A DNA stretch of 64,000 nt from Candidatus Amesbacteria bacterium RIFCSPLOWO2_01_FULL_48_25 (GCA_001773695.1 MEXN01000005.1:3687-67686), one strand, 5' to 3'; shown: positions 1 through 63,014, counted from the stretch's first letter. A program made the numbers and translations. Notes: generated from the letters alone by a model not told the origin.

Positions 1-79
1 GCGACCTGTTTGACGGTGTAGGTTTTGGGCATCGGCAGTTTTTACAAGTTTGTGAGGCTAAATTTACAAGTTCTTACAA

Positions 80-985
80 GTGTGTAAAACCAGTGTGAAG
101 CCTTTTTATATATGTGTCAATAGCCTTTTGGAGATGGCTTTGGTAAGCTGGATTAAGATGGGAATAAAAAAGGGCCTAGAGATACCTTGGTTGGAGGGGG
201 TGAAACCCCGGGTAAAAGAGGTGTTCTATTTAGGGAGTTGGCGGGAGGAAGTGTTTACCAAGTGTGTGGCAGTGGTGGGTAGCCGGCGGATGACCCAGTA
301 TGGAGAGAGGGTGGTGGAGAAACTGGTGCCGGGGTTGGTGGATCAGGGATACACAATTGTGTCGGGGTTCATGTATGGGGTGGATCAGGCGGCCCATAGG
401 ATGACTGTGGCCTGTGGAGGTAGAACTGTGGCAGTTTTGGGATGGGGAATAAGTTACCCAATGTCTAATGACGAATGTCTAATGTCTAATAAAATTGTTG
501 ATTCTGGAGGGCTGATTATCTCGGAGTGGGAGAAGCAGGAGCCGATGTTGTGGACGTTTCCTCTAAGAAACCGGATTGTGGCGGCGATGGTGTCGGACAT
601 TTATGTGGTGGAGGCGGCTTCTGTCTCCGGAGCGTTGATTACCGTGGGGTGGGGAAGAAAGTTGGGGAAAAAGATTTGGGCTGTGCCGGGACCGGTGACA
701 AGCAAAGTGTCTGAGGGAACGAACAAGTTAATAGCCGATGGGCTGGCGAAGATGTGGGTGCCAAATGAGAATAAAAGAGCGGGAGAGTTTAAGAGTATAA
801 GTGGAGGTACTAACATAGGTGATTTATATACTGTGTTGCAGAATGATGCATTGACAATTGATGAGCTGGTGAGAAAGACGAGAAAGAGTGCCCAGGAGGT
901 GGGAGCTGCGCTTACTATGATGACCTTGAGAGGAGAAGTGAGTGAGAGGGAGGGAAAGTATTATATCAATGACCAGTTGACCTAA
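80..985 (+). CDS. dprA: DNA-processing protein A (DprA/Smf), Rossmann-like DprA domain plus C-terminal winged helix; true start is probably an internal Met (~137-161)
   Basis: ORF translation contains the DprA core 'VVGSRRMTQYGERVV...GYTIVSGFMYGVDQAAH' and C-terminal wHTH-like tail; long ORF with coding periodicity. Confidence 0.8.
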   Translation: MCKTSVKPFYICVNSLLEMALVSWIKMGIKKGLEIPWLEGVKPRVKEVFYLGSWREEVFTKCVAVVGSRRMTQYGERVVEKLVPGLVDQGYTIVSGFMYGVDQAAHRMTVACGGRTVAVLGWGISYPMSNDECLMSNKIVDSGGLIISEWEKQEPMLWTFPLRNRIVAAMVSDIYVVEAASVSGALITVGWGRKLGKKIWAVPGPVTSKVSEGTNKLIADGLAKMWVPNENKRAGEFKSISGGTNIGDLYTVLQNDALTIDELVRKTRKSAQEVGAALTMMTLRGEVSEREGKYYINDQLT

Positions 986-1013
986 TTGATCTAATTGACA
1001 TACTATAATAGTA

Positions 1014-1394
1014 GTGGGATCGAAAACAAGAGTTTTGATTGTTGACGATGATGGGGATTTTTGTGATTTTTACAAGCGGATATTGGAAGAAGAGGGGTAT
1101 GAGGTAGAAGTGGCCGGGGATGGACATGAGGGATTGGCGAAAGCACTGGCCGGGGGGTACAGGCTGATTTTACTGGATATCAGGATGCCGGGAATGGATG
1201 GAATGGAAGTGTTGAAGCAACTGCATGAGGGTGTGCCGAAAAGGGAAAATGGGAAGGTTGTGATGATGACGAGCTATGCTGATTCGGATATGTCTACGGG
1301 GGCGCGGATGATGGGGGCAGCAGGATATGTGATGAAGGTGAGCGGAGCCGACCCCGGTCAGTTTGTGAAGATGGTTAAGGGTTATTTGGAATGA
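1014..1394 (+). CDS. stand-alone CheY-like response-regulator receiver domain protein
   Basis: 'RVLIVDDDGDF...LILLDIRMPGMDGMEVLKQL' receiver signature (phospho-acceptor Asp in LDIRMPG context); no output domain. Confidence 0.75.
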   Translation: MGSKTRVLIVDDDGDFCDFYKRILEEEGYEVEVAGDGHEGLAKALAGGYRLILLDIRMPGMDGMEVLKQLHEGVPKRENGKVVMMTSYADSDMSTGARMMGAAGYVMKVSGADPGQFVKMVKGYLE

Positions 1395-1416
1395 GACCGT
1401 GTAATATGTGAGTTAA

Positions 1417-1515
1417 TGCTGGTGAAGGTGGGGAGTGTAGCTAATGTGGGATTGCAAAGCTTTGGGGTGGATGTGGAGGTGTCGGAAGGTGTCGAGAGGG
1501 GGGATATTATGTGAA
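1417..1515 (+). pseudogene. truncated duplicate of the 5' end of comM (first ~22 codons: MLVKVGSVANVGLQSFGVDVEV...), then diverges and terminates
   Basis: nt 1441-1480 are identical to 2551-2590 (start of intact comM at 2523); upstream 25 nt similar but diverged; reading frame stops after 32 codons. Confidence 0.55.
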
Positions 1516-1857
1516 CGACCAATGGCCAGCATTGGTAGGATTAATGGAAACTATTCTTCAGGCAGGTCTACAGATATTACTTTGAAGAGTTCCCCAGTGG
1601 TTCGTATGGGACATTTGTCGCAGACTCGATATAATGGGGTTCCCGGGCACTTGAACAGGATTTTTGCTTCCGGTGAGGTGGGCCAGCCGACGGCTACATT
1701 ACTGATAGGTTTTTTAGACCTAAGGTCGGGACAAAGTTTGGGGGCAAGGGTTGAGAGGATCCACAGCCTTGCCAGTTCGAGAAGCGGTTTGAACCCAGCG
1801 GGGTCGAGTAAAACATACTCCTTTTCTTGCAGTGACATACTATAAGGTATTTTACGG

Positions 1858-1875
1858 GTTGTTGTTGTTGTTGTT
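1858..1875. repeat. (GTT)6 trinucleotide microsatellite
   Basis: gttgttgttgttgttgtc seen directly; generates the 'MTTTTTTT' start of an antisense ORF. Confidence 0.9.
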
Positions 1876-1898
1876 GTCAAGGTTTACAATAGTCGGGT

Positions 1899-2180
1899 AT
1901 GGGGACGGATCAGATTATCAGTGCGATTAAGCCGGTGCTTTTGAAGCACGGGGTGATGAAGGCGGAGCTGTTTGGATCGGCGGCTCGGGGTGAGATGGGT
2001 CCAGGCAGTGATGTTGATGTGCTGGTCGAGTTGCCCAAAAAAACTGGTCTTTTGGATTTAATAAGATTACGTAGAGATTTGAAGACCCGGCTGGAGAGGA
2101 ATGTGGATGTGGTTACGTATCGGGCCTTGAATTCGCGGCTGATTCCTTATGTGATGGCTGACACAATGAGAGTAATATGA
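1899..2180 (+). CDS. mntA: minimal nucleotidyltransferase (MNT/MntA-like antitoxin)
   Basis: 'GSAARGEMGPGSDVDVLVE' = GS-X9-DxD nucleotidyltransferase motif; 93 aa; overlaps next gene by 4 nt (ATGA). Confidence 0.8.
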   Translation: MGTDQIISAIKPVLLKHGVMKAELFGSAARGEMGPGSDVDVLVELPKKTGLLDLIRLRRDLKTRLERNVDVVTYRALNSRLIPYVMADTMRVI

Positions 2181-2533
2181 AGAGGAGAGATCCCGATGTC
2201 TATTTGGGGCATATTGAAGATGCTATTCGAGATGTGAACCAGTATTTAGGTGACTATACTTGGGAGGAGTTTTTGGATGACGGCAAGACTCAAGATGCTG
2301 TCATGAGGAAGTTGGAGGTAATAGGAGAGGCGGTGAAAAATTTTCCCGAGGAGTTTCTTGAAAAATGGCCTGATGTTCCCTGGAGAGACATTGCGGACTT
2401 CCGCAATGTCTTGATTCACGAGTATTTCGATGTGGATTTGGAAGAGGTGTGGAACACGGTGAAAAACGACTTACCGGTTTTGGGGGAGAGGATTAGGGGA
2501 GTTCGGGAGAAGATTAAAAAAGATGCTGGTTAA
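2177..2533 (+). CDS. hepT: HepT-like HEPN toxin (DUF86)
   Basis: 'FRNVLIHEY' R-X4-HxY HEPN motif; translationally coupled to upstream MNT gene; 3' end overlaps comM start. Confidence 0.8.
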   Translation: MKRRDPDVYLGHIEDAIRDVNQYLGDYTWEEFLDDGKTQDAVMRKLEVIGEAVKNFPEEFLEKWPDVPWRDIADFRNVLIHEYFDVDLEEVWNTVKNDLPVLGERIRGVREKIKKDAG

Positions 2534-4067
2534 AGTTAGGTCGGTGGCGAATGTGGGATTGCAAAGCTTTGGGGTGGATGTGGAGGTGGATGTGGCGGAA
2601 GCCGGATTTCCTGGATTTAATATAGTAGGCTTGGCTGGTAAGGCAGTGGAGGAAGCGCGAGAGCGGGTAAAGACAGCGATTGTCAATTCCGGCCTGGATT
2701 TTCCGCCAAAAAAAATTACAGTGAATTTGGCCCCGGCTGATTTGCCTAAGGACGGGGGAGCTTATGACTTGCCGATGGCAGTAGGAATACTCGCGGCCAG
2801 CGAGCAAGTCCCAAAACTCAAACCCCAAGACTCAATATTTTATGGTGAATTGTCGTTAGATGGATCATTGCGGGGAACGAAAGGAGTATTGCTCGTTGGA
2901 TTGTTCGCGAAAAAAGGTGATGGTGTTTTTGTTCCCATCGAGTCCGCCAACGAGGCGGCAGTAGTGGAGAATATAAATGTATACCCGGTGAGAAACCTCA
3001 GGGAATTGGTGGACCATTTGAATAACATAAAAGAGATTAAGAGATTGAGTAATTTGGAGATTGGGGAGCTAGTAGACGATGTGTCGGTGGAGTTTGATTT
3101 GGCGGAAGTGGCGGGGCAGGAACAGGCCAAGCGGGCGCTGACGATAGCGGCCGCCGGAGGACACAACTTGTTAATGTGGGGACCTCCGGGGACAGGAAAG
3201 ACGATGTTGGCCCGGGCGATGCCGGGAATACTCCCTCCATTAAATGTGCCGGAGGCGTTGGAGGTGACGAGAATTTATTCGGTCTCCGGCTTGTTGATTG
3301 CCGGAGAATCATTGCTCCGGCGAAGGCCGTTTAGGAGTCCGCATCATGGAATATCTCCGGCGGGAATGGTGGGGGGCGGGAGCAACCCAATGCCAGGAGA
3401 AGTATCACTGGCCCACTTGGGGGTTTTGTTTTTGGATGAGATGGCGGAATTTCCACGGTCGGTGTTGGAGTCTATGCGCCAACCAATGGAAGACGGGGTA
3501 GTGGGGATTGTGCGGGCGACGGCGCATGTTTCTTACCCTGCTAGTTTTACCCTCTTGGCTGCGGTTAACCCTTGCCCGTGCGGATATTTGGGGCATCCCC
3601 GGCGGGAATGTAAATGCACGGATAAAATGATTCGGAAGTATAGGGCAAAGATCTCTGGCCCAATTCTGGACAGAATAGATTTGCATGTGCAGGTGCCGAC
3701 GGTGGAAACAAATAAGTTGACAAGTGATCAGTTATCAGCCCGCCTGCCGGACGGGCAGGTTAATCAGTTAAGTTCAAAAGTTATTAGAGATAAAGTTATT
3801 TTGGCAAGAAAAATACAGGTGGAGAGATTTGGGGATGATGGATTGTATACTAACTCTCAAATGCGCAATAAGCAGGTGAAGAAATATTGTAAGTTGGATG
3901 GGGAGACGCTGAGGATATTGAAGCTGGCGGTGGAGAAATGGGATTTATCGGCGAGGGCGTATTTCCGTTTAATAAAAGTGGCGCGGACAATTGCCGATCT
4001 GGACGAGTCGGAGAATATCGCGGTTAGATATATGGCAGAAGCGCTACAATATAGGCAACTGGTATGA
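2523..4067 (+). CDS. comM: ComM/YifB Mg-chelatase-like AAA+ ATPase (competence-associated)
   Basis: N-terminal Lon-protease-like subdomain, Walker A 'GPPGTGKTMLA', 'VLFLDEMAEF' Walker B, C-terminal Mg-chelatase subunit ChlI-like region. Confidence 0.85.
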   Translation: MLVKVRSVANVGLQSFGVDVEVDVAEAGFPGFNIVGLAGKAVEEARERVKTAIVNSGLDFPPKKITVNLAPADLPKDGGAYDLPMAVGILAASEQVPKLKPQDSIFYGELSLDGSLRGTKGVLLVGLFAKKGDGVFVPIESANEAAVVENINVYPVRNLRELVDHLNNIKEIKRLSNLEIGELVDDVSVEFDLAEVAGQEQAKRALTIAAAGGHNLLMWGPPGTGKTMLARAMPGILPPLNVPEALEVTRIYSVSGLLIAGESLLRRRPFRSPHHGISPAGMVGGGSNPMPGEVSLAHLGVLFLDEMAEFPRSVLESMRQPMEDGVVGIVRATAHVSYPASFTLLAAVNPCPCGYLGHPRRECKCTDKMIRKYRAKISGPILDRIDLHVQVPTVETNKLTSDQLSARLPDGQVNQLSSKVIRDKVILARKIQVERFGDDGLYTNSQMRNKQVKKYCKLDGETLRILKLAVEKWDLSARAYFRLIKVARTIADLDESENIAVRYMAEALQYRQLV

Positions 4068-5752
4068 AGAAATTGGCTCTAGTGATCTGGTTGGCGCTGG
4101 TCTTGCCGACTAAGGTGGGGGCACAAGAATATGAGGTAACCAGTTTTTCTAGCAGGATTGAAATATTGAGGAACACGGATTTGCGTATTACGGAGACGAT
4201 AGAGGCTAATTTTAATATTCCCAAGCACGGAATTTTTAGATACATTCCAAGTAAATATAAAGTGGAGGGCAAGACTTGGGATACGCACTTGCGAGTAGAG
4301 CGGGTAAACGAGAGATACACTTTGACTCATGAGGGAAATAACGTAGTTATAAAAATTGGGGATCCCAATGTGACTTCGACAGGGCCAAAAACGTACGAGA
4401 TTACTTATGTAGTTGAGAATATGGTGCTGGATTTTTCTAACCATGATGAAGTGTATTGGAACGTAACCGGAGCCGATTGGGATACAACAATTGACAAGGC
4501 GAGTGTTCAGGTGGTTACCCCGTGGGCTAAGATAATTAAATCTGACTGTTTTGCCGGAGTAAGCGGGACGAGCGATAGAAGTTGTCGAACGGTTGGGGAC
4601 AGCTGGACGGCCGGGGGATTGGGGGAGGGAAAGGAGATGACGATTGTGGTGGGACTAGACAAGGAAAATCTACTGGAATGGCCTGGGTGGTGGGACAGAA
4701 ACTGGCGGGAAATAGGGAAATATTTGCTGAGTTTAGCTCCGGCTTTAATTATGGGAAGTATTTGGTATGTCCGAGGGAGAGATTTAAAGTATATAGGAAG
4801 TAACGTTTATGTTAAACAGGAGGCGGCAATAGTTCGGAAGACTGGTGTGGGGGAGAGGGAACATTTGCCATTGGTGTATTCACCGATTGCCGGTTTAACT
4901 CCGGCGGAAGTGGGGACGATTATCGACCAGCGGGTAGATCTGGCTGATGTGACGGCGGAAATTTTGGAATTGGCCAGGTTGGGCTATGTCAAAATTAAAA
5001 AAGTCGATAAAGATTATTTGTTTGAGCGGACGGATAAAAATGATGAAGCTTTGAAAGACTTTCAGAAGTCACTGTTAACAAATATTACTGATTCTGTCCG
5101 GTTTGCTCCGGATGTGGGGAGTACTAGCAGACAAACTTCGCTTGCCAAGATGAAGCAGAAATTTAGCAAGTCCCTAGACGAGTTTAAAGATAAATTGTAT
5201 GAGCATTTGGCAAGTGCGCGGATATTTGACGGGAGGCCGGATAATATCCGAAGGATTGTGGTGGGAATAGGAGCGTTTGCGGGTTGGATGACAATTGGGA
5301 TATTTGGCGCGGTAGTTTTGGCGCAAGGGCCGTGGGGAGTGGTTCTTTTGGTCTCATCGGCAATTGCCGGAGTATTTGCTTATCAGCTGCCAAGACGGAC
5401 GGCGTGGGGACATTCGTTGTATAGGCAAACGGTGGGACTCAAGTACTTTTTGGGTAAGGGGAAATGGCGGTATGAAGTTGCGGAGAAATATTTGTTTTTG
5501 GAGGAAGTATTTCCGCTGGCGGTATCTTTGGGGGTAGTGTCTAAACTGGTTTCTGATATGAAGGGACTGGGCCTGGCGGCTCCGGAGTATGTGGGTGGCT
5601 TTGGTGGAAACATTGGGAGTTTCCATAGCCAGATAAGCTCGACTCTGCCGTCTGTGAAATCGGGCGGAAGTGGCGGGTGGAGCGGGGGGTCGGGATTTTC
5701 CGGCGGGTCTTCCGGCGGCGGGGGAGGCGGTGGAGGGGGAGGGAGCTGGTGA
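4064..5752 (+). CDS. DUF2207-family membrane protein with signal peptide, internal TM segments and Gly-rich C-terminal tail
   Basis: N-terminal signal 'MKKLALVIWLALVLP', extracellular beta-rich N-domain, two TM helices mid-protein, C-terminal 'GGSGGWSGGSGFSGGSSGGGGGGGGGG'; start overlaps comM stop (ATGA). Confidence 0.65.
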   Translation: MKKLALVIWLALVLPTKVGAQEYEVTSFSSRIEILRNTDLRITETIEANFNIPKHGIFRYIPSKYKVEGKTWDTHLRVERVNERYTLTHEGNNVVIKIGDPNVTSTGPKTYEITYVVENMVLDFSNHDEVYWNVTGADWDTTIDKASVQVVTPWAKIIKSDCFAGVSGTSDRSCRTVGDSWTAGGLGEGKEMTIVVGLDKENLLEWPGWWDRNWREIGKYLLSLAPALIMGSIWYVRGRDLKYIGSNVYVKQEAAIVRKTGVGEREHLPLVYSPIAGLTPAEVGTIIDQRVDLADVTAEILELARLGYVKIKKVDKDYLFERTDKNDEALKDFQKSLLTNITDSVRFAPDVGSTSRQTSLAKMKQKFSKSLDEFKDKLYEHLASARIFDGRPDNIRRIVVGIGAFAGWMTIGIFGAVVLAQGPWGVVLLVSSAIAGVFAYQLPRRTAWGHSLYRQTVGLKYFLGKGKWRYEVAEKYLFLEEVFPLAVSLGVVSKLVSDMKGLGLAAPEYVGGFGGNIGSFHSQISSTLPSVKSGGSGGWSGGSGFSGGSSGGGGGGGGGGSW

Positions 5753-5753
5753 T

Positions 5754-5972
5754 ATGTCTGAAAAAGCAACACTCGATATAATTTGTTGCAGTGAAAGAGA
5801 GGCTTTGCCGTTGGATGGGGAAGCTTTGAAAAAGGATTATTGCGAGTATGAAGATATTTGTCCGCTGGGAGAACTGAGAATGCAGCTGAGGGTGGCCAAA
5901 GGGGTGCTGGCTCGGGCGATATGCGTGTGCGGAACCGATGAAGTGGGACTAGTGAGATATGAAAAAACTTAA
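5754..5972 (+). CDS. small Cys-rich hypothetical protein (72 aa), possibly co-transcribed with yraN
   Basis: ORF starts 2 nt after DUF2207 stop, 6 Cys residues, overlaps yraN start by 14 nt; not independently supported. Confidence 0.3.
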   Translation: MSEKATLDIICCSEREALPLDGEALKKDYCEYEDICPLGELRMQLRVAKGVLARAICVCGTDEVGLVRYEKT

Positions 5973-6315
5973 CCGGGAGATTGGTAGGATCGGTGAACTA
6001 GCAGCTGAGGAATTTTTGGTAAAAAAGGGATTAGAAGTGGTTTTGAGAAATTTTAGTACTCGATTCGGGGAAATAGATTTGATAATGAATGATAAGAGCG
6101 TATTGGTGTTTGTGGAGGTAAAAGCTAAAAAGGGACTGGTTTTTGGGTCACCGGAGGAAATGTTTACTCGGGGGAAGTACAACAAGGTAAAACGAATGGC
6201 GACGGTGTATTTAAAGGGCCGGGACGTGCTCTGTAGAATTGATATGGTGGCGGTGGTTTTGAACGAATCAAACCAACCAGTTTCTGTAAAGCACTATGAG
6301 AATGTGGTGATGTAA
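5959..6315 (+). CDS. yraN: YraN-family (UPF0102) predicted endonuclease
   Basis: 'GEIDLIM...VFVEVKAK' PD-(D/E)xK-like core typical of UPF0102. Confidence 0.7.
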   Translation: MKKLNREIGRIGELAAEEFLVKKGLEVVLRNFSTRFGEIDLIMNDKSVLVFVEVKAKKGLVFGSPEEMFTRGKYNKVKRMATVYLKGRDVLCRIDMVAVVLNESNQPVSVKHYENVVM

Positions 6316-6317
6316 CT

Positions 6318-6596
6318 TTAGGTTTTGGGTCTTTTTGAGTATTCGGCGGCGAATTCGTCGAGCTTAGTTCCGTAGGGATTCTTTTTCTCTTTGGCGTGAA
6401 ATTCGCCAAGTATTCCAGCCACCAGAGTGTCGAGTATTTTAAGTCCGATTGACCTGTCTCTACTAGGGCTGAATAAATCTGGTTCCAGTTCGGTTGCGGC
6501 TAATTCGGCTGCTCTCGTTTCTAGATTACCTAATCCTCTGGCATCGGAAAGATGAAGGACGCGGCCCCAAGCTTGGAGAAACTCGGCGAGTGACAT
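6318..6596 (-). CDS. hypothetical protein (92 aa) downstream of rplK; not rplA
   Basis: ORF abuts rplK stop; no recognisable L1 motifs. Confidence 0.3.
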   Translation of the reverse strand: MSLAEFLQAWGRVLHLSDARGLGNLETRAAELAATELEPDLFSPSRDRSIGLKILDTLVAGILGEFHAKEKKNPYGTKLDEFAAEYSKRPKT

Positions 6597-7021: not shown

Positions 7022-7665
7022 TATATTTTCTTAACTTGTAAAAAGTCGAGTTCTACTGGGGTTTCGCGGCCGAAAATGGAGACTAAAACCCGGAGTTTTC
7101 CGTGTTCTTCGTCCAGAGATTCGATTGAACCCAAAAAGTCGGTGAACGGGCCATCGGTGATTTTGACGGCCTCGCCGACGGTGAAATTGGTTTTGAATTT
7201 GGCCGCTCCCATTTGGGCAAATTGCATAATGGCGTCGACCTCGGCTTGGGAGAGGGGGGTAGGCTTGTTGCCCATACCGACGAACCCGGTAATGCCTTGG
7301 GTGGTTCTAACGACTAGCCAGGAATCGTCGTCGGCGATCATTTTGACCAAGAGATAGCCGGGGAAAATTTTCTCGCGGACTTGAAACTTTTTGCCGTGTT
7401 TGATGTGAATTTTGTTTTGAGTGGGGATCAAAAGCTCGAAAACCTTATCGGTTTGGCCGAGGGTGGCGACACGTTGGCGGAGGGCGTCGGCGACCCGGGC
7501 CTCGTGACCGGAGTAGGTGTGAACGACGTACCAGTGGACGGAATTGGAATCTGGGACGTTGGAGTTGATGATCATGTGGCCGGGGATGTTTTTGCCCCCT
7601 AGTCCACGCTCGGAGATAGCGGTAGGACTGTCGGTAGTAGTTATTTGATCGTCATGGGGAGTCAT
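7021..7665 (-). CDS. nusG: transcription termination/antitermination factor NusG (with N-terminal extension)
   Basis: NGN domain 'WYVVHTYSGHE', C-terminal KOW 'FTVGEAVKITDGPF'; stop/start juxtaposed with rplK (ATAATG overlap). Confidence 0.9.
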   Translation of the reverse strand: MTPHDDQITTTDSPTAISERGLGGKNIPGHMIINSNVPDSNSVHWYVVHTYSGHEARVADALRQRVATLGQTDKVFELLIPTQNKIHIKHGKKFQVREKIFPGYLLVKMIADDDSWLVVRTTQGITGFVGMGNKPTPLSQAEVDAIMQFAQMGAAKFKTNFTVGEAVKITDGPFTDFLGSIESLDEEHGKLRVLVSIFGRETPVELDFLQVKKI

Positions 7666-51238: not shown

Positions 51239-51278
51239 CAAATTGACCTAATTGACCTAATTGATCTAATGTCTAAGT

Positions 51279-62201: not shown

Positions 62202-63014
62202 TTGCATTGGCTATATACTCGTCAGGAGCCTGACGATTATAATCGGGGCATGATTTTTGATGGGAAGAAGTTTGCGGGGGAAATTGAGAAGATATTAAGA
62301 GATGAAGTGATTAAGTTGGGGAAGAGGCTGAAGCTGGTGACGATTGTAGACCCGGCGAATCCAGCAAGCGTAACATATACAAATCTCAAAGCTGCTATGG
62401 CTGCACGCCTGGGTGTAGATTTTGAAATTCAAAAATCAAATAACAAATCACAAATCAAATCTAAAATCCAAAAACTAAACGTGGATTCAGATGTTGATGG
62501 GATTATGGTTCAGATGCCGTTCCCGAATGCCAAATTTCTAATTGATCTAATTGACCCAAGGAAAGATATAGACGGATTGAGAGAAGATTCGCCGTATAAG
62601 CCGGCGGTAGTGAGAGCGATTTGTGAAATCCTAATTTCTAATTTCGAATTTCTAAACAAATCTCAAGCCCCAAAATCCAAAACACAAATTTGTGTTGTGG
62701 GGTCGAAGGGGTTTGTGGGATCTAGGCTGATGCGGGAGTTGCCGGGAGCGGTGGGGATGGATAAGGGGGATTTTGACCCTTCGGTGTTGCTCAGAGCAAG
62801 TGTAATTGTAAGTGCTACGGGGCAGGCGGGGCTGATTAAGCCCGATATGGTTAAAGAGGGGGTGGTAGCTATTGATGTGGGGTATCCCAAAGGGGATTTT
62901 GACCCGGAAGTGGTGAAGAAAACCGCGTTTTTTACGCCGGTTCCGGGTGGAGTGGGGCCGGTAACGGTGGTGATGCTGTTTAAAAATTTGGTGGATGCTG
63001 TATTATTGGAGTAG
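62202..63014 (+). CDS. folD: bifunctional 5,10-methylene-THF dehydrogenase/cyclohydrolase FolD (true start probably Met at ~62250) with Lys/Gln-rich low-complexity segments
   Basis: 'DGIMVQMPFP', 'KPAVVRAI', 'VVGSKGFVGSRL', 'VSATGQAGLIKPDMVKEGVVAIDVG'. Confidence 0.75.
   Translation: MHWLYTRQEPDDYNRGMIFDGKKFAGEIEKILRDEVIKLGKRLKLVTIVDPANPASVTYTNLKAAMAARLGVDFEIQKSNNKSQIKSKIQKLNVDSDVDGIMVQMPFPNAKFLIDLIDPRKDIDGLREDSPYKPAVVRAICEILISNFEFLNKSQAPKSKTQICVVGSKGFVGSRLMRELPGAVGMDKGDFDPSVLLRASVIVSATGQAGLIKPDMVKEGVVAIDVGYPKGDFDPEVVKKTAFFTPVPGGVGPVTVVMLFKNLVDAVLLE

Follow-up and report, generated by a model that had tools for sequence, protein, structure and literature searches.

In chromosomal hot spots, or variable slots, core genes flank an interval whose accessory cassettes are swapped through homologous recombination in the flanking DNA. 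The large Tn7-like transposons known as AbaR islands interrupt the gene comM, so inactivating it, and generate a short target duplication. The earliest descriptions of homology-facilitated illegitimate recombination (HFIR) came from Acinetobacter and Streptococcus. It has been documented as a result of natural transformation (PMC3240628), a process in which the proteins DprA and ComM cooperate (PMC6158740, PMC12012524); AbaR islands, by disrupting comM, resist being cured by transformation (PMC11441513, PMC4795794). Islands of the dusA type integrate at the 5' end of a gene, for which they bring a substitute 5' end of their own; they encode a dedicated tyrosine integrase beside the att site, and recur at one site in many genomes (PMC4482086). 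Type VII toxin–antitoxin (TA) systems, HepT/MntA (or HEPN/MNT), are marked by the motifs GSx10DxD in MNT and Rx4HxY in HepT (PMC7641770, PMC13000451); in the system studied, MntA adenylylates the Tyr of HepT, and so neutralizes its RNase activity (PMC7641770). Here we describe a locus that resembles each of these in part: the interval between dprA and comM in 64,000 nucleotides (nt) of DNA—‘the window’—from Candidatus Amesbacteria (Microgenomates), in which the start of comM occurs twice, with a HepT/MNT pair between the copies. We think it likely that imprecise recombination, in a variable slot enclosed by two conserved competence genes, left this repeat as its scar, and that the repeat is not the footprint of a mobile TA module.

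The window comes from an uncultured groundwater bacterium, a population of the Rifle aquifer (RIFCSP..._FULL_48_32/48_25). Its comM was compared with those of 80 related Microgenomates loci (81 loci in all), and dprA–comM distances were taken from the 71 related loci that hold both genes; where they must be told apart, loci carry L numbers. A repeat search of the window found one direct repeat of 66 nt, at 1416–1481 and 2523–2588, with a spacing of 1107 nt and 86% identity. The two copies differ in an uneven way. The last 39 nt, the ‘core’, are identical at 39/39 positions (1443–1481 and 2550–2588; blastn-short self-search, E 6e-18), and the nine differences are confined to the first 27 nt, the ‘head’ (9/27 versus 0/39, Fisher p = 1.3e-4). 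Eight of these nine nucleotide changes are synonymous; they lie in six codons, and include a switch between the Ser codons AGT and TCG. Decay of a dead copy in place would not give such a pattern, and the two heads are evidently two alleles of comM; since these alleles are diverged in their first 27 nt, recombination between diverged DNAs is likely to have been involved. Head 1 (1416–1442) is nearest to the comM heads of L014 and L043, with 4/27 differences. Head 2 differs from the comM head of the closest relative (L095–L101, described below) at 4/27 positions also, and head 1 differs from that same sequence at 9/27.

The downstream copy opens an intact comM/yifB gene of 514 amino acids (aa; 2523–4067, plus strand), with all three Pfam domains (ChlI, Mg_chelatase and Mg_chelatase_C); the protein is full length, and aligns end to end with its 80 orthologues. 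The upstream copy (1416–1481, plus strand) comprises comM codons 1–22 and opens an open reading frame (ORF) of only 32 aa (1416–1514), MLVKVGSVANVGLQSFGVDVEV-SEGVERGDIM*. A degenerate scan for the head-1 peptide, MLVKVGSVANVG, in an intact comM matched only this same composite locus. A second copy of the organism's own comM start occurs in the window alone (1/81 comM loci). Much of this had been described in an earlier note on this DNA, made from the sequence alone, and most of the description holds: the similarity that precedes the identical core, the derailing of the upstream copy and the true start of ComM in the downstream one, the (GTT) microsatellite and coupled MNT and HepT genes that lie between them, and the overlap of the HepT stop with the comM start. 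The identity it placed at 1441–1480 and 2551–2590 is real in substance, with coordinates that were off by 2–3 nt; of the other comM-proximal duplications that it proposed to look for, a duplicated comM head is absent from all 80 of the other loci.

Copy 1 ends at a novel junction (1482–1490, plus strand), where comM is joined, at nt 66 (or at nt 79, given a 6-nt deletion), to dprA ~48 nt before its stop. The joint is in frame, from comM codon 22 to ~16 codons before the dprA stop, which yields the 32-aa ORF, and the sequences that it joins—comM codon 22 and the dprA tail—are mutually non-homologous. Read directly from the sequences, the junction TCGGAAGGT fits both parents, as a candidate microhomology: CGGAAG(GT) would fit GCGGAAG of comM and CGGGGAGAGGT of dprA. 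The breakpoint lies inside a 12-nt tandem of comM, GGTGGATGTGGA, detected by the tandem-repeat finder TRF.

The junction leads into a dprA 3'-end relic (‘tail B’, 1483–1530, plus strand), with two 3-nt deletions, one 2-nt deletion and no remaining stop codons. Its functional counterpart, ‘tail A’, is the last ~50 nt (~935–985, plus strand) of an intact dprA at 80–985 (plus strand; Pfam DNA_processg_A, 3.4e-51, and DprA_WH), which is syntenic with dprA in the 71 related loci. The relic agrees with the DprA C-terminus in 8/10 aa (blastx), and with the DprA tail of the closest relative in 8/9 (tblastx); at the nucleotide level, GGAAGGTGTCGAGAGGGGGGATATTATGTGAACGACCAATGGCC of the relic aligns with GGAGAGGTAGTGGAGAGGGAGGGGAAGTATTATGTCAATGATTAATGACC of that relative. 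The Smith–Waterman score against the relative's tail is 34, compared with maxima of 30 in 2000 shuffles and 31 in 670 genomic windows. Within 1001–2522, the stretch that best matches the dprA tail of the window itself is exactly 1485–1522. A dprA-tail relic after copy 1 appears to be supported, if short. The comM'/dprA' fusion ORF is most likely inert, and the dead comM head and dead dprA tail appear to be without function. In a separate comparison, the dprA tails of 27 loci were aligned to their own dprA–comM gaps; L062 gave the top score (33, at ~725), and may hold another such relic.

The composite locus is real. Positions 1–6400 of the window occur at 100% identity in 13 retrieved loci, from nine distinct contigs that represent different samples and assemblers. 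All 10 contexts listed, of 23 contigs read that encode the response regulator described below, have the arrangement of the window, and the sequence recurs in over 20 independent metagenome contigs. Contigs that carry the composite, 100% identical, are 5–217 kb long, and come from JGI, ENA, NCBI and Logan assemblies of different samples. Breaks inside the 39-nt repeat occur in k=31 Logan unitigs only, as is expected for a true repeat. The arrangement is confirmed, then, and is no assembly artefact. Several other contigs end elsewhere, at window ~3116.

In full, the order of the window is dprA, response regulator, comM' (nt 1–66), junction, dprA' tail, Cys-rich gene (minus strand), (GTT)n promoter, MNT, HepT and comM. 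The response regulator (RR) is a stand-alone receiver of 126 aa (1014–1394, plus strand; Pfam Response_reg, 3.8e-24) with native-like codon usage. Its best homologue (54% identity) is that of L102/L103, where the order is dprA–RR–comM; the 80 other loci of the set have no RR at the dprA–comM position. At the left edge of the RR segment, and at the dprA stop, lies a 9-nt tandem motif, TTGAYCTAA, in 2.6 copies (977–999, plus strand; TRF), and here similarity to the closest relative ends. The motif (TTGACCTAATTGATCTAA) recurs in intergenic DNA just after gene stops at 51243–51269 and 62542–62559, giving four matches versus 0.05 expected, and may be a genome-specific promoter or terminator-like element.

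The small Cys-rich gene (1551–1838, minus strand) encodes 95 aa, with four Cys residues in the arrangement CPxxR...KCPG...CxKC. The gene converges on the dprA relic and diverges from MNT, and has atypical codon usage. It has no Pfam or PADLOC match; a homologue, P0214, was found at E 1.5e-5 against 1.8e9 representatives, with 36% identity. Gene callers annotate instead a plus-strand ORF at 1489–1845, which we reject: it has no homologue outside its own cluster, and is probably a shadow of the minus-strand gene. There is a lesson in this for annotation. Of the ORFs called at 1416–1845, those of 30–32 aa are the fusion relic, and those of 118–133 aa are probably on the wrong strand of the Cys-rich gene. 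Between this gene and MNT, in a divergent promoter region, is the (GTT)6.7 microsatellite (1858–1877, plus strand; TRF), which with its flanks is 90–92% conserved in the closest relative, and has an (AAC)n counterpart in L109.

The MntA-type antitoxin, MNT, comprises 93 aa (1899–2180, plus strand; Pfam NTP_transf_2, 3e-13, and Polbeta, 2.6e-11; PADLOC PDC-S09), and the HepT toxin 118 aa (2177–2533, plus strand; Pfam HepT-like, 3.3e-30). In translation, MNT has the GSx10DxD motif as G26-S27-x10-D38-V-D40, and HepT has Rx4HxY as R76-NVLI-H81-E-Y83. The two genes are co-oriented, antitoxin first, and overlap by 4 nt; HepT overlaps comM in turn by 11 nt, so that its last three codons and stop lie in the comM start region. 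By genes and motifs, the pair looks to be an ordinary HepT/MntA module. An exact 13-mer, TGACATACTATAA, occurs at 996–1008, 6 nt upstream of the RR start, and again at 1833–1845, over the start codon of the minus-strand Cys-rich gene and 54 nt upstream of MNT; it is found nowhere else in the 64 kb, even with two mismatches allowed. Such a pair exceeds expectation only marginally; the 13-mer may be a promoter element common to both genes, or else mark a second microhomology used in recombination.

The gene order in the 80 related loci is dprA–comM–yraN. The distance from dprA to comM is 76 nt or less in 46/71 loci, many of them with overlapping genes, and the dprA stop often lies inside comM codons 3–5. 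A gap of at least 145 nt is present in the other 25, with unrelated contents: a PaaX-like protein (L003, L004 and L011), an IS200/RAYT-like gene (L035), a 1191-aa protein (L012), and small ORFs. L010 has a different MNT–HepT pair in the gap, and no repeat. By these comparisons, the dprA–comM junction is a variable slot, recurrently used, that holds unrelated cassettes in 25/71 loci; we know of no description of it in the Candidate Phyla Radiation (CPR).

The closest relative (L095–L101) is from the same aquifer. It encodes DprA, then, after a 279-nt spacer with a small minus-strand ORF and (GTT)8, MNT, HepT, ComM and YraN, and is collinear with window 1858–4068. Identities are highest for ComM (88%) and YraN (83%), lower for DprA (68%), and lowest for MNT (59%) and HepT (48%). 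Its dprA is intact; neither an RR nor a second comM head is present; and its HepT also ends ‘...DAG*’, over the comM ATG. Only the two ends of the spacer are shared: the interior, window 1530–1857, has no homology to it (global alignment 19 versus null 16 ± 5). At the nucleotide level, identity to L095 is 42–60% in the TA core (1978–2517), 78–92% in the promoter and MNT 5' end, and 84–90% in comM; divergence of the TA core between conserved flanks suggests allelic replacement, as is typical of a variable slot, or diversifying selection. In L102/L103, from Rifle groundwater, the order is DprA–RR–ComM, and the RR stop is 3 nt before the comM ATG. In L109, finally, an intact dprA and a homologue of the Cys-rich gene converge, the homologue being 10 nt from the dprA stop and having (AAC)n upstream of it; relic, Cys-rich gene and (GTT)n have this geometry in the window.

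Some of these loci have further peculiarities. Beyond the (AAC)n run of L109, at 1–327, is a C-terminal fragment that, read by eye, is like an IS30-family transposase, no family search having been made; if that is what it is, mobile elements do visit the dprA–comM slot in some genomes. L077, an Amesbacteria metagenome-assembled genome, has a disrupted comM, with an in-frame stop at codon 27 (6079) and, exactly at the conserved NPCPCGY motif, an AT-rich insertion of ~500 nt with a 78-aa ORF (7119–7620). Comparison with related genomes, which the earlier note had proposed as a check, shows that the gapless state is common. An apparent ‘empty site’ of the window species did not survive, however: L094 has dprA abutting comM, and is identical to the window from nt ~66, but its left part is 95% identical to L043, L120 has the same kind of switch and an unmatched end, chimeras being likely, and the L094 junction was not found in a scan of metagenome contigs. 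L094 (1–200) and L120 (reverse complement 1–240, and 3348–3562) are JGI contigs of which these parts are 95–99.6% identical to the Amesbacteria species L043; conserved motifs in comM (nt 58–78) and in dprA are the points at which they change over to the window species. They are probably assembly chimeras, though they may be true interspecies recombinants.

Two types of cassette are present among close relatives of the window. In the first, h1, the order is dprA–RR–comM; in the second, h2, dprA is followed by a small minus-strand gene, the (GTT)n promoter and MNT–HepT–comM. The window has one of each, in series: an h1 unit that ends at comM nt 66 is fused to the last ~48 nt of a dprA that opens a complete h2 unit. 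Illegitimate or unequal recombination yields just such a head-to-tail joint when two versions of the dprA–comM interval take part. Both arrangements occur in related species of the same aquifer, h2 in L095–L101 and h1 in L102/L103. The likeliest route, we infer, would be HFIR after DNA uptake, with one end homologous and the other joined at microhomology. Alternatively, a tandem duplication, with one copy later exchanging its cassette, would produce the same structure. Were the TA block to pop out by way of the 39-nt repeat, GTAGCTAATGTGGGATTGCAAAGCTTTGGGGTGGATGTGGAGGTGGATGTGGCGGAAG would be left as the junction.

Several observations weigh against this interpretation. The cores are identical at 39/39 positions while the heads differ at 9/27, which calls for an extra assumption: the parents may have been conspecific haplotypes whose heads were exchanged along with the cassettes; later gene conversion may have homogenized the cores; or duplication may have been followed by a swap with a crossover inside the 66-nt fragment. 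The C-terminal half of DprA has no h1-like mosaic, nor is a mosaic boundary detectable in dprA, though one is clear at comM nt 27/28. The relic is only ~46–48 nt long, with three indels, and in appearance is more decayed than the adjoining comM fragment. A broad nhmmer profile of 20 dprA tails missed it, while matching the real tail (E 4e-11), and so the relic rests on pairwise and positional evidence. Searches of contigs found no haplotype of the window species with h1 only or h2 only. Depending on the route, either unit may have been the resident, transfer may have gone in either direction, and one event or two may have taken place; natural transformability of these bacteria is an assumption drawn from gene content.

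Other explanations have to be set beside it. Collapse or chimerization of co-occurring Amesbacteria strains during assembly might be suspected, as chimeric contigs do exist in these data (L094 and L120 both switch from an L043-like species to the window species at conserved motifs). The composite, however, does not vary (100% identity) from contig to contig, whatever the sample or assembly, only the k=31 Logan unitigs breaking in the repeat, and we regard artefact as exceedingly improbable. There is a very slim chance that the upstream copy is functional, as a translated leader peptide or a regulatory small ORF 3' of the RR that is kept by selection. It has kept its start codon and an open frame of 32 aa, has a coding score of 0.51 bits/codon, and its 39-nt core has not decayed. 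But comM and dprA are the source of that score, the peptide consists of an N-terminal piece of ComM followed by a frameshifted DprA tail, none of the 80 related loci has a homologous small ORF, and the copy is found in one sequence population only. Barely better, and still very improbable, is a strictly mobile cassette: a minimal MNT–HepT element that integrated site-specifically in the comM 5' end and brought a replacement comM start. We would say the same, very improbable, of the 39-nt core as an att site, as in dusA-type islands. The appearance is suggestive: direct repeats flank the TA genes, an identical core has diverged arms, the downstream arm restores the ORF, and formally the whole resembles attL/attR in islands by which the 5' end of a gene is regenerated (PMC4482086). 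Against it, there is no integrase or transposase in or beside the 1.1-kb segment, and the upstream neighbors are dCache/HTH genes. No integrase, transposase, or serine or tyrosine recombinase was found in 1–6400, nor in the ~3.7 kb upstream that is seen in L081; the repeat search found no inverted repeats bounding the segment; and every ORF in 986–2522 is the receiver, MNT, HepT, or without a Pfam or PADLOC match. The integrase remnants that the earlier note had proposed to seek in 1480–1900 did not turn up either, both long ORFs of 1482–1898 lacking Pfam and PADLOC matches, and blastx and tblastx returning the dprA tail only. The ‘element’ opens with a relic of the dprA 3' end and a gene that is found beside dprA elsewhere, so that the duplicated unit is ‘dprA tail ... 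comM head’ and not a cassette's target site. The closest relative and L010 carry MNT–HepT between intact dprA and comM genes, without the repeat; the duplicated head is present in no other locus among the 81; and it is the arm beside intact comM that the closest relative, free of the repeat, has in common with the window. The earlier note's interpretation is thus supported only in part. The duplication is real and brackets the TA genes, as the note held, but its origin in a TA cassette that landed in comM is not supported: since the same block is present in the closest relative without a duplicated head, and with comM intact, the TA module sits in the dprA–comM slot, and not in comM. The likeness drawn to comM insertions in Acinetobacter is partial, for comM is uninterrupted and no transposition genes are present. 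As the closest relative shares the TA block, the window-specific DNA is the RR segment and copy 1.

The direction supposed by the earlier note, TA-bearing DNA entering an RR–comM genome, is possible, though as recombination with a relative's chromosomal interval and not as integration of a mobile TA module. A resident dprA–RR–comM would have taken up a chromosomal fragment of a relative (dprA tail, Cys-rich gene, MNT, HepT and comM head); a homologous crossover would have occurred near comM nt 27/28, and an illegitimate join at nt 66 would have duplicated nt 28–66. We take this opposite polarity to be the foremost alternative, and unlikely all the same. It explains the identical cores without gene conversion; head 1 and its 21-nt leader resemble the native comM starts and leaders of the clade (4/27 differences to L014/L043), and the promoter and MNT 5' end are closer to the closest relative (92%) than are comM (~85%) or dprA (~68%). 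On the other hand, nt 28–66 of the recipient would have been used twice, which is atypical for HFIR; the TA core is only 42–60% identical to that of the closest relative, so the donor was not close to it; and head 2 and the comM body are similarly diverged from that relative, as for contiguous resident DNA. Less probable again, and decidedly unlikely, is a purely local tandem duplication of the interval from dprA tail to comM head, followed by divergence in place, without foreign DNA. A head-to-tail junction is a hallmark of tandem duplication, both dprA tails have the same type of post-stop sequence (AAYGAY...TGRCC) as the closest relative, and the cores are identical. Yet the interiors of the two units—RR in one, and Cys-rich gene–MNT–HepT in the other—are unrelated, and a dead copy would not gain eight synonymous changes out of nine in 27 nt with the next 39 nt unchanged. 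At least one later replacement of a cassette from another allele would be needed, and the explanation then merges with recombination between versions of the slot, the reading that we favor.

The arrangement bears on how comM is expressed. In relatives free of cassettes, comM appears to be translationally coupled to dprA. In the window, comM is probably transcribed from the TA promoter, because the minus-strand Cys-rich gene interrupts read-through from dprA–RR, and it is probably coupled in translation to HepT through their 11-nt overlap. A promoter and terminator scan of the locus was uninformative. As a dead by-product, the scar is fairly ordinary, one more instance of an event of a known kind; it would show illegitimate recombination between alternative versions of one locus shaping the tiny genomes of uncultured CPR bacteria. 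A TA pair wedged between competence genes, probably capturing comM transcriptionally, is together with the slot the more interesting lead. Tentatively, and as something that we think doubtful, one might go further: the Microgenomates dprA–comM junction might be a dedicated, integrase-free slot in which small TA, regulatory or selfish cassettes are swapped by natural transformation, with dprA and comM as homology arms; the window would be an imprecise swap that stacked two cassettes, and TA cassettes would uncouple comM from dprA and bring it under the TA promoter, in coupling with HepT. If natural transformation serviced the slot, the genomes would give indirect support to the transformability of these organisms, which to our knowledge has never been shown experimentally. 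Were this so, a selfish module would control the very protein that the cell needs to recombine the module away, a gentler analogue of the comM-disrupting AbaR islands that resist curing (PMC11441513, PMC4795794).

The neighborhood of the locus offers a few observations of its own. Between comM and yraN, the window has a DUF2207 membrane-protein gene (Pfam; 4064–5752), as does L001 (5324–6955); yraN follows at 5959–6315 (Pfam). The DUF2207 gene is absent from the closest relative and most other loci, where yraN abuts comM, and the comM–yraN position is a second variable slot of this gene cluster. Several metagenome contigs break in the Gly-rich 3' end of the gene (~5700–5750). The coding sequence of dprA contains, at 460–490, a 7-nt tandem, AATGTCT, in 4.4 copies; a one-unit slip would shift the frame, and phase variation of dprA is conceivable by this means. 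Upstream of window position 1, as seen on the minus strand of L081 (1946–3760), are a divergent 604-aa protein with HTH_17 and dCache_1 domains and an unannotated protein of 649–828 aa; a sensory module beside an orphan RR could be its partner. Near the locus, neither Rfam (gathering thresholds over the whole window, E-value mode over 1380–1960) nor ARAGORN turned up an RNA gene or a tRNA.

How, then, does this locus compare with the systems with which we began? As in AbaR islands (PMC11441513, PMC7508600), foreign DNA is associated with comM, and an effect on transformation is possible. Unlike them, the window has an intact comM, from the ATG at 2523 to the stop at 4067, and no transposition genes of the TnsA/B/C-like kind; and in place of a 5-bp duplication and terminal inverted repeats, its repeat is 66 nt long and diverged, and the cassette lies 5' of comM. 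In form, like the dusA-type islands, it has direct repeats with a 39-nt core and diverged 27-nt arms, one copy of which restores the target reading frame; unlike them, it has no integrase and no recurrence, and its ‘element’ starts with a piece of a neighboring chromosomal gene. The TA pair, known from sequence only, has the order MNT then HepT, the 4-nt overlap and both motifs of type VII systems, including the Tyr that MntA adenylylates in the system studied. It differs from those described in that HepT runs into the comM start; otherwise, there is nothing unusual in it. The resemblance to HFIR lies in a block that would have been added beside shared sequence, with its far end at a candidate microhomology of a few bases and with no recombinase gene or terminal repeats, in a host that encodes DprA and ComM, recombination proteins of transformation. 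It departs from HFIR in that short duplicates of both flanking genes have been retained, and in the extra assumption that the 39-nt identity calls for. Like other variable slots, finally, it has conserved flanks, dprA and comM, unrelated small cassettes in 25/71 loci, and a TA core of 42–60% identity between flanks of 85–92%; unlike typical ones, this slot is very small—one to three genes—and lies within an otherwise translationally coupled pair of competence genes.

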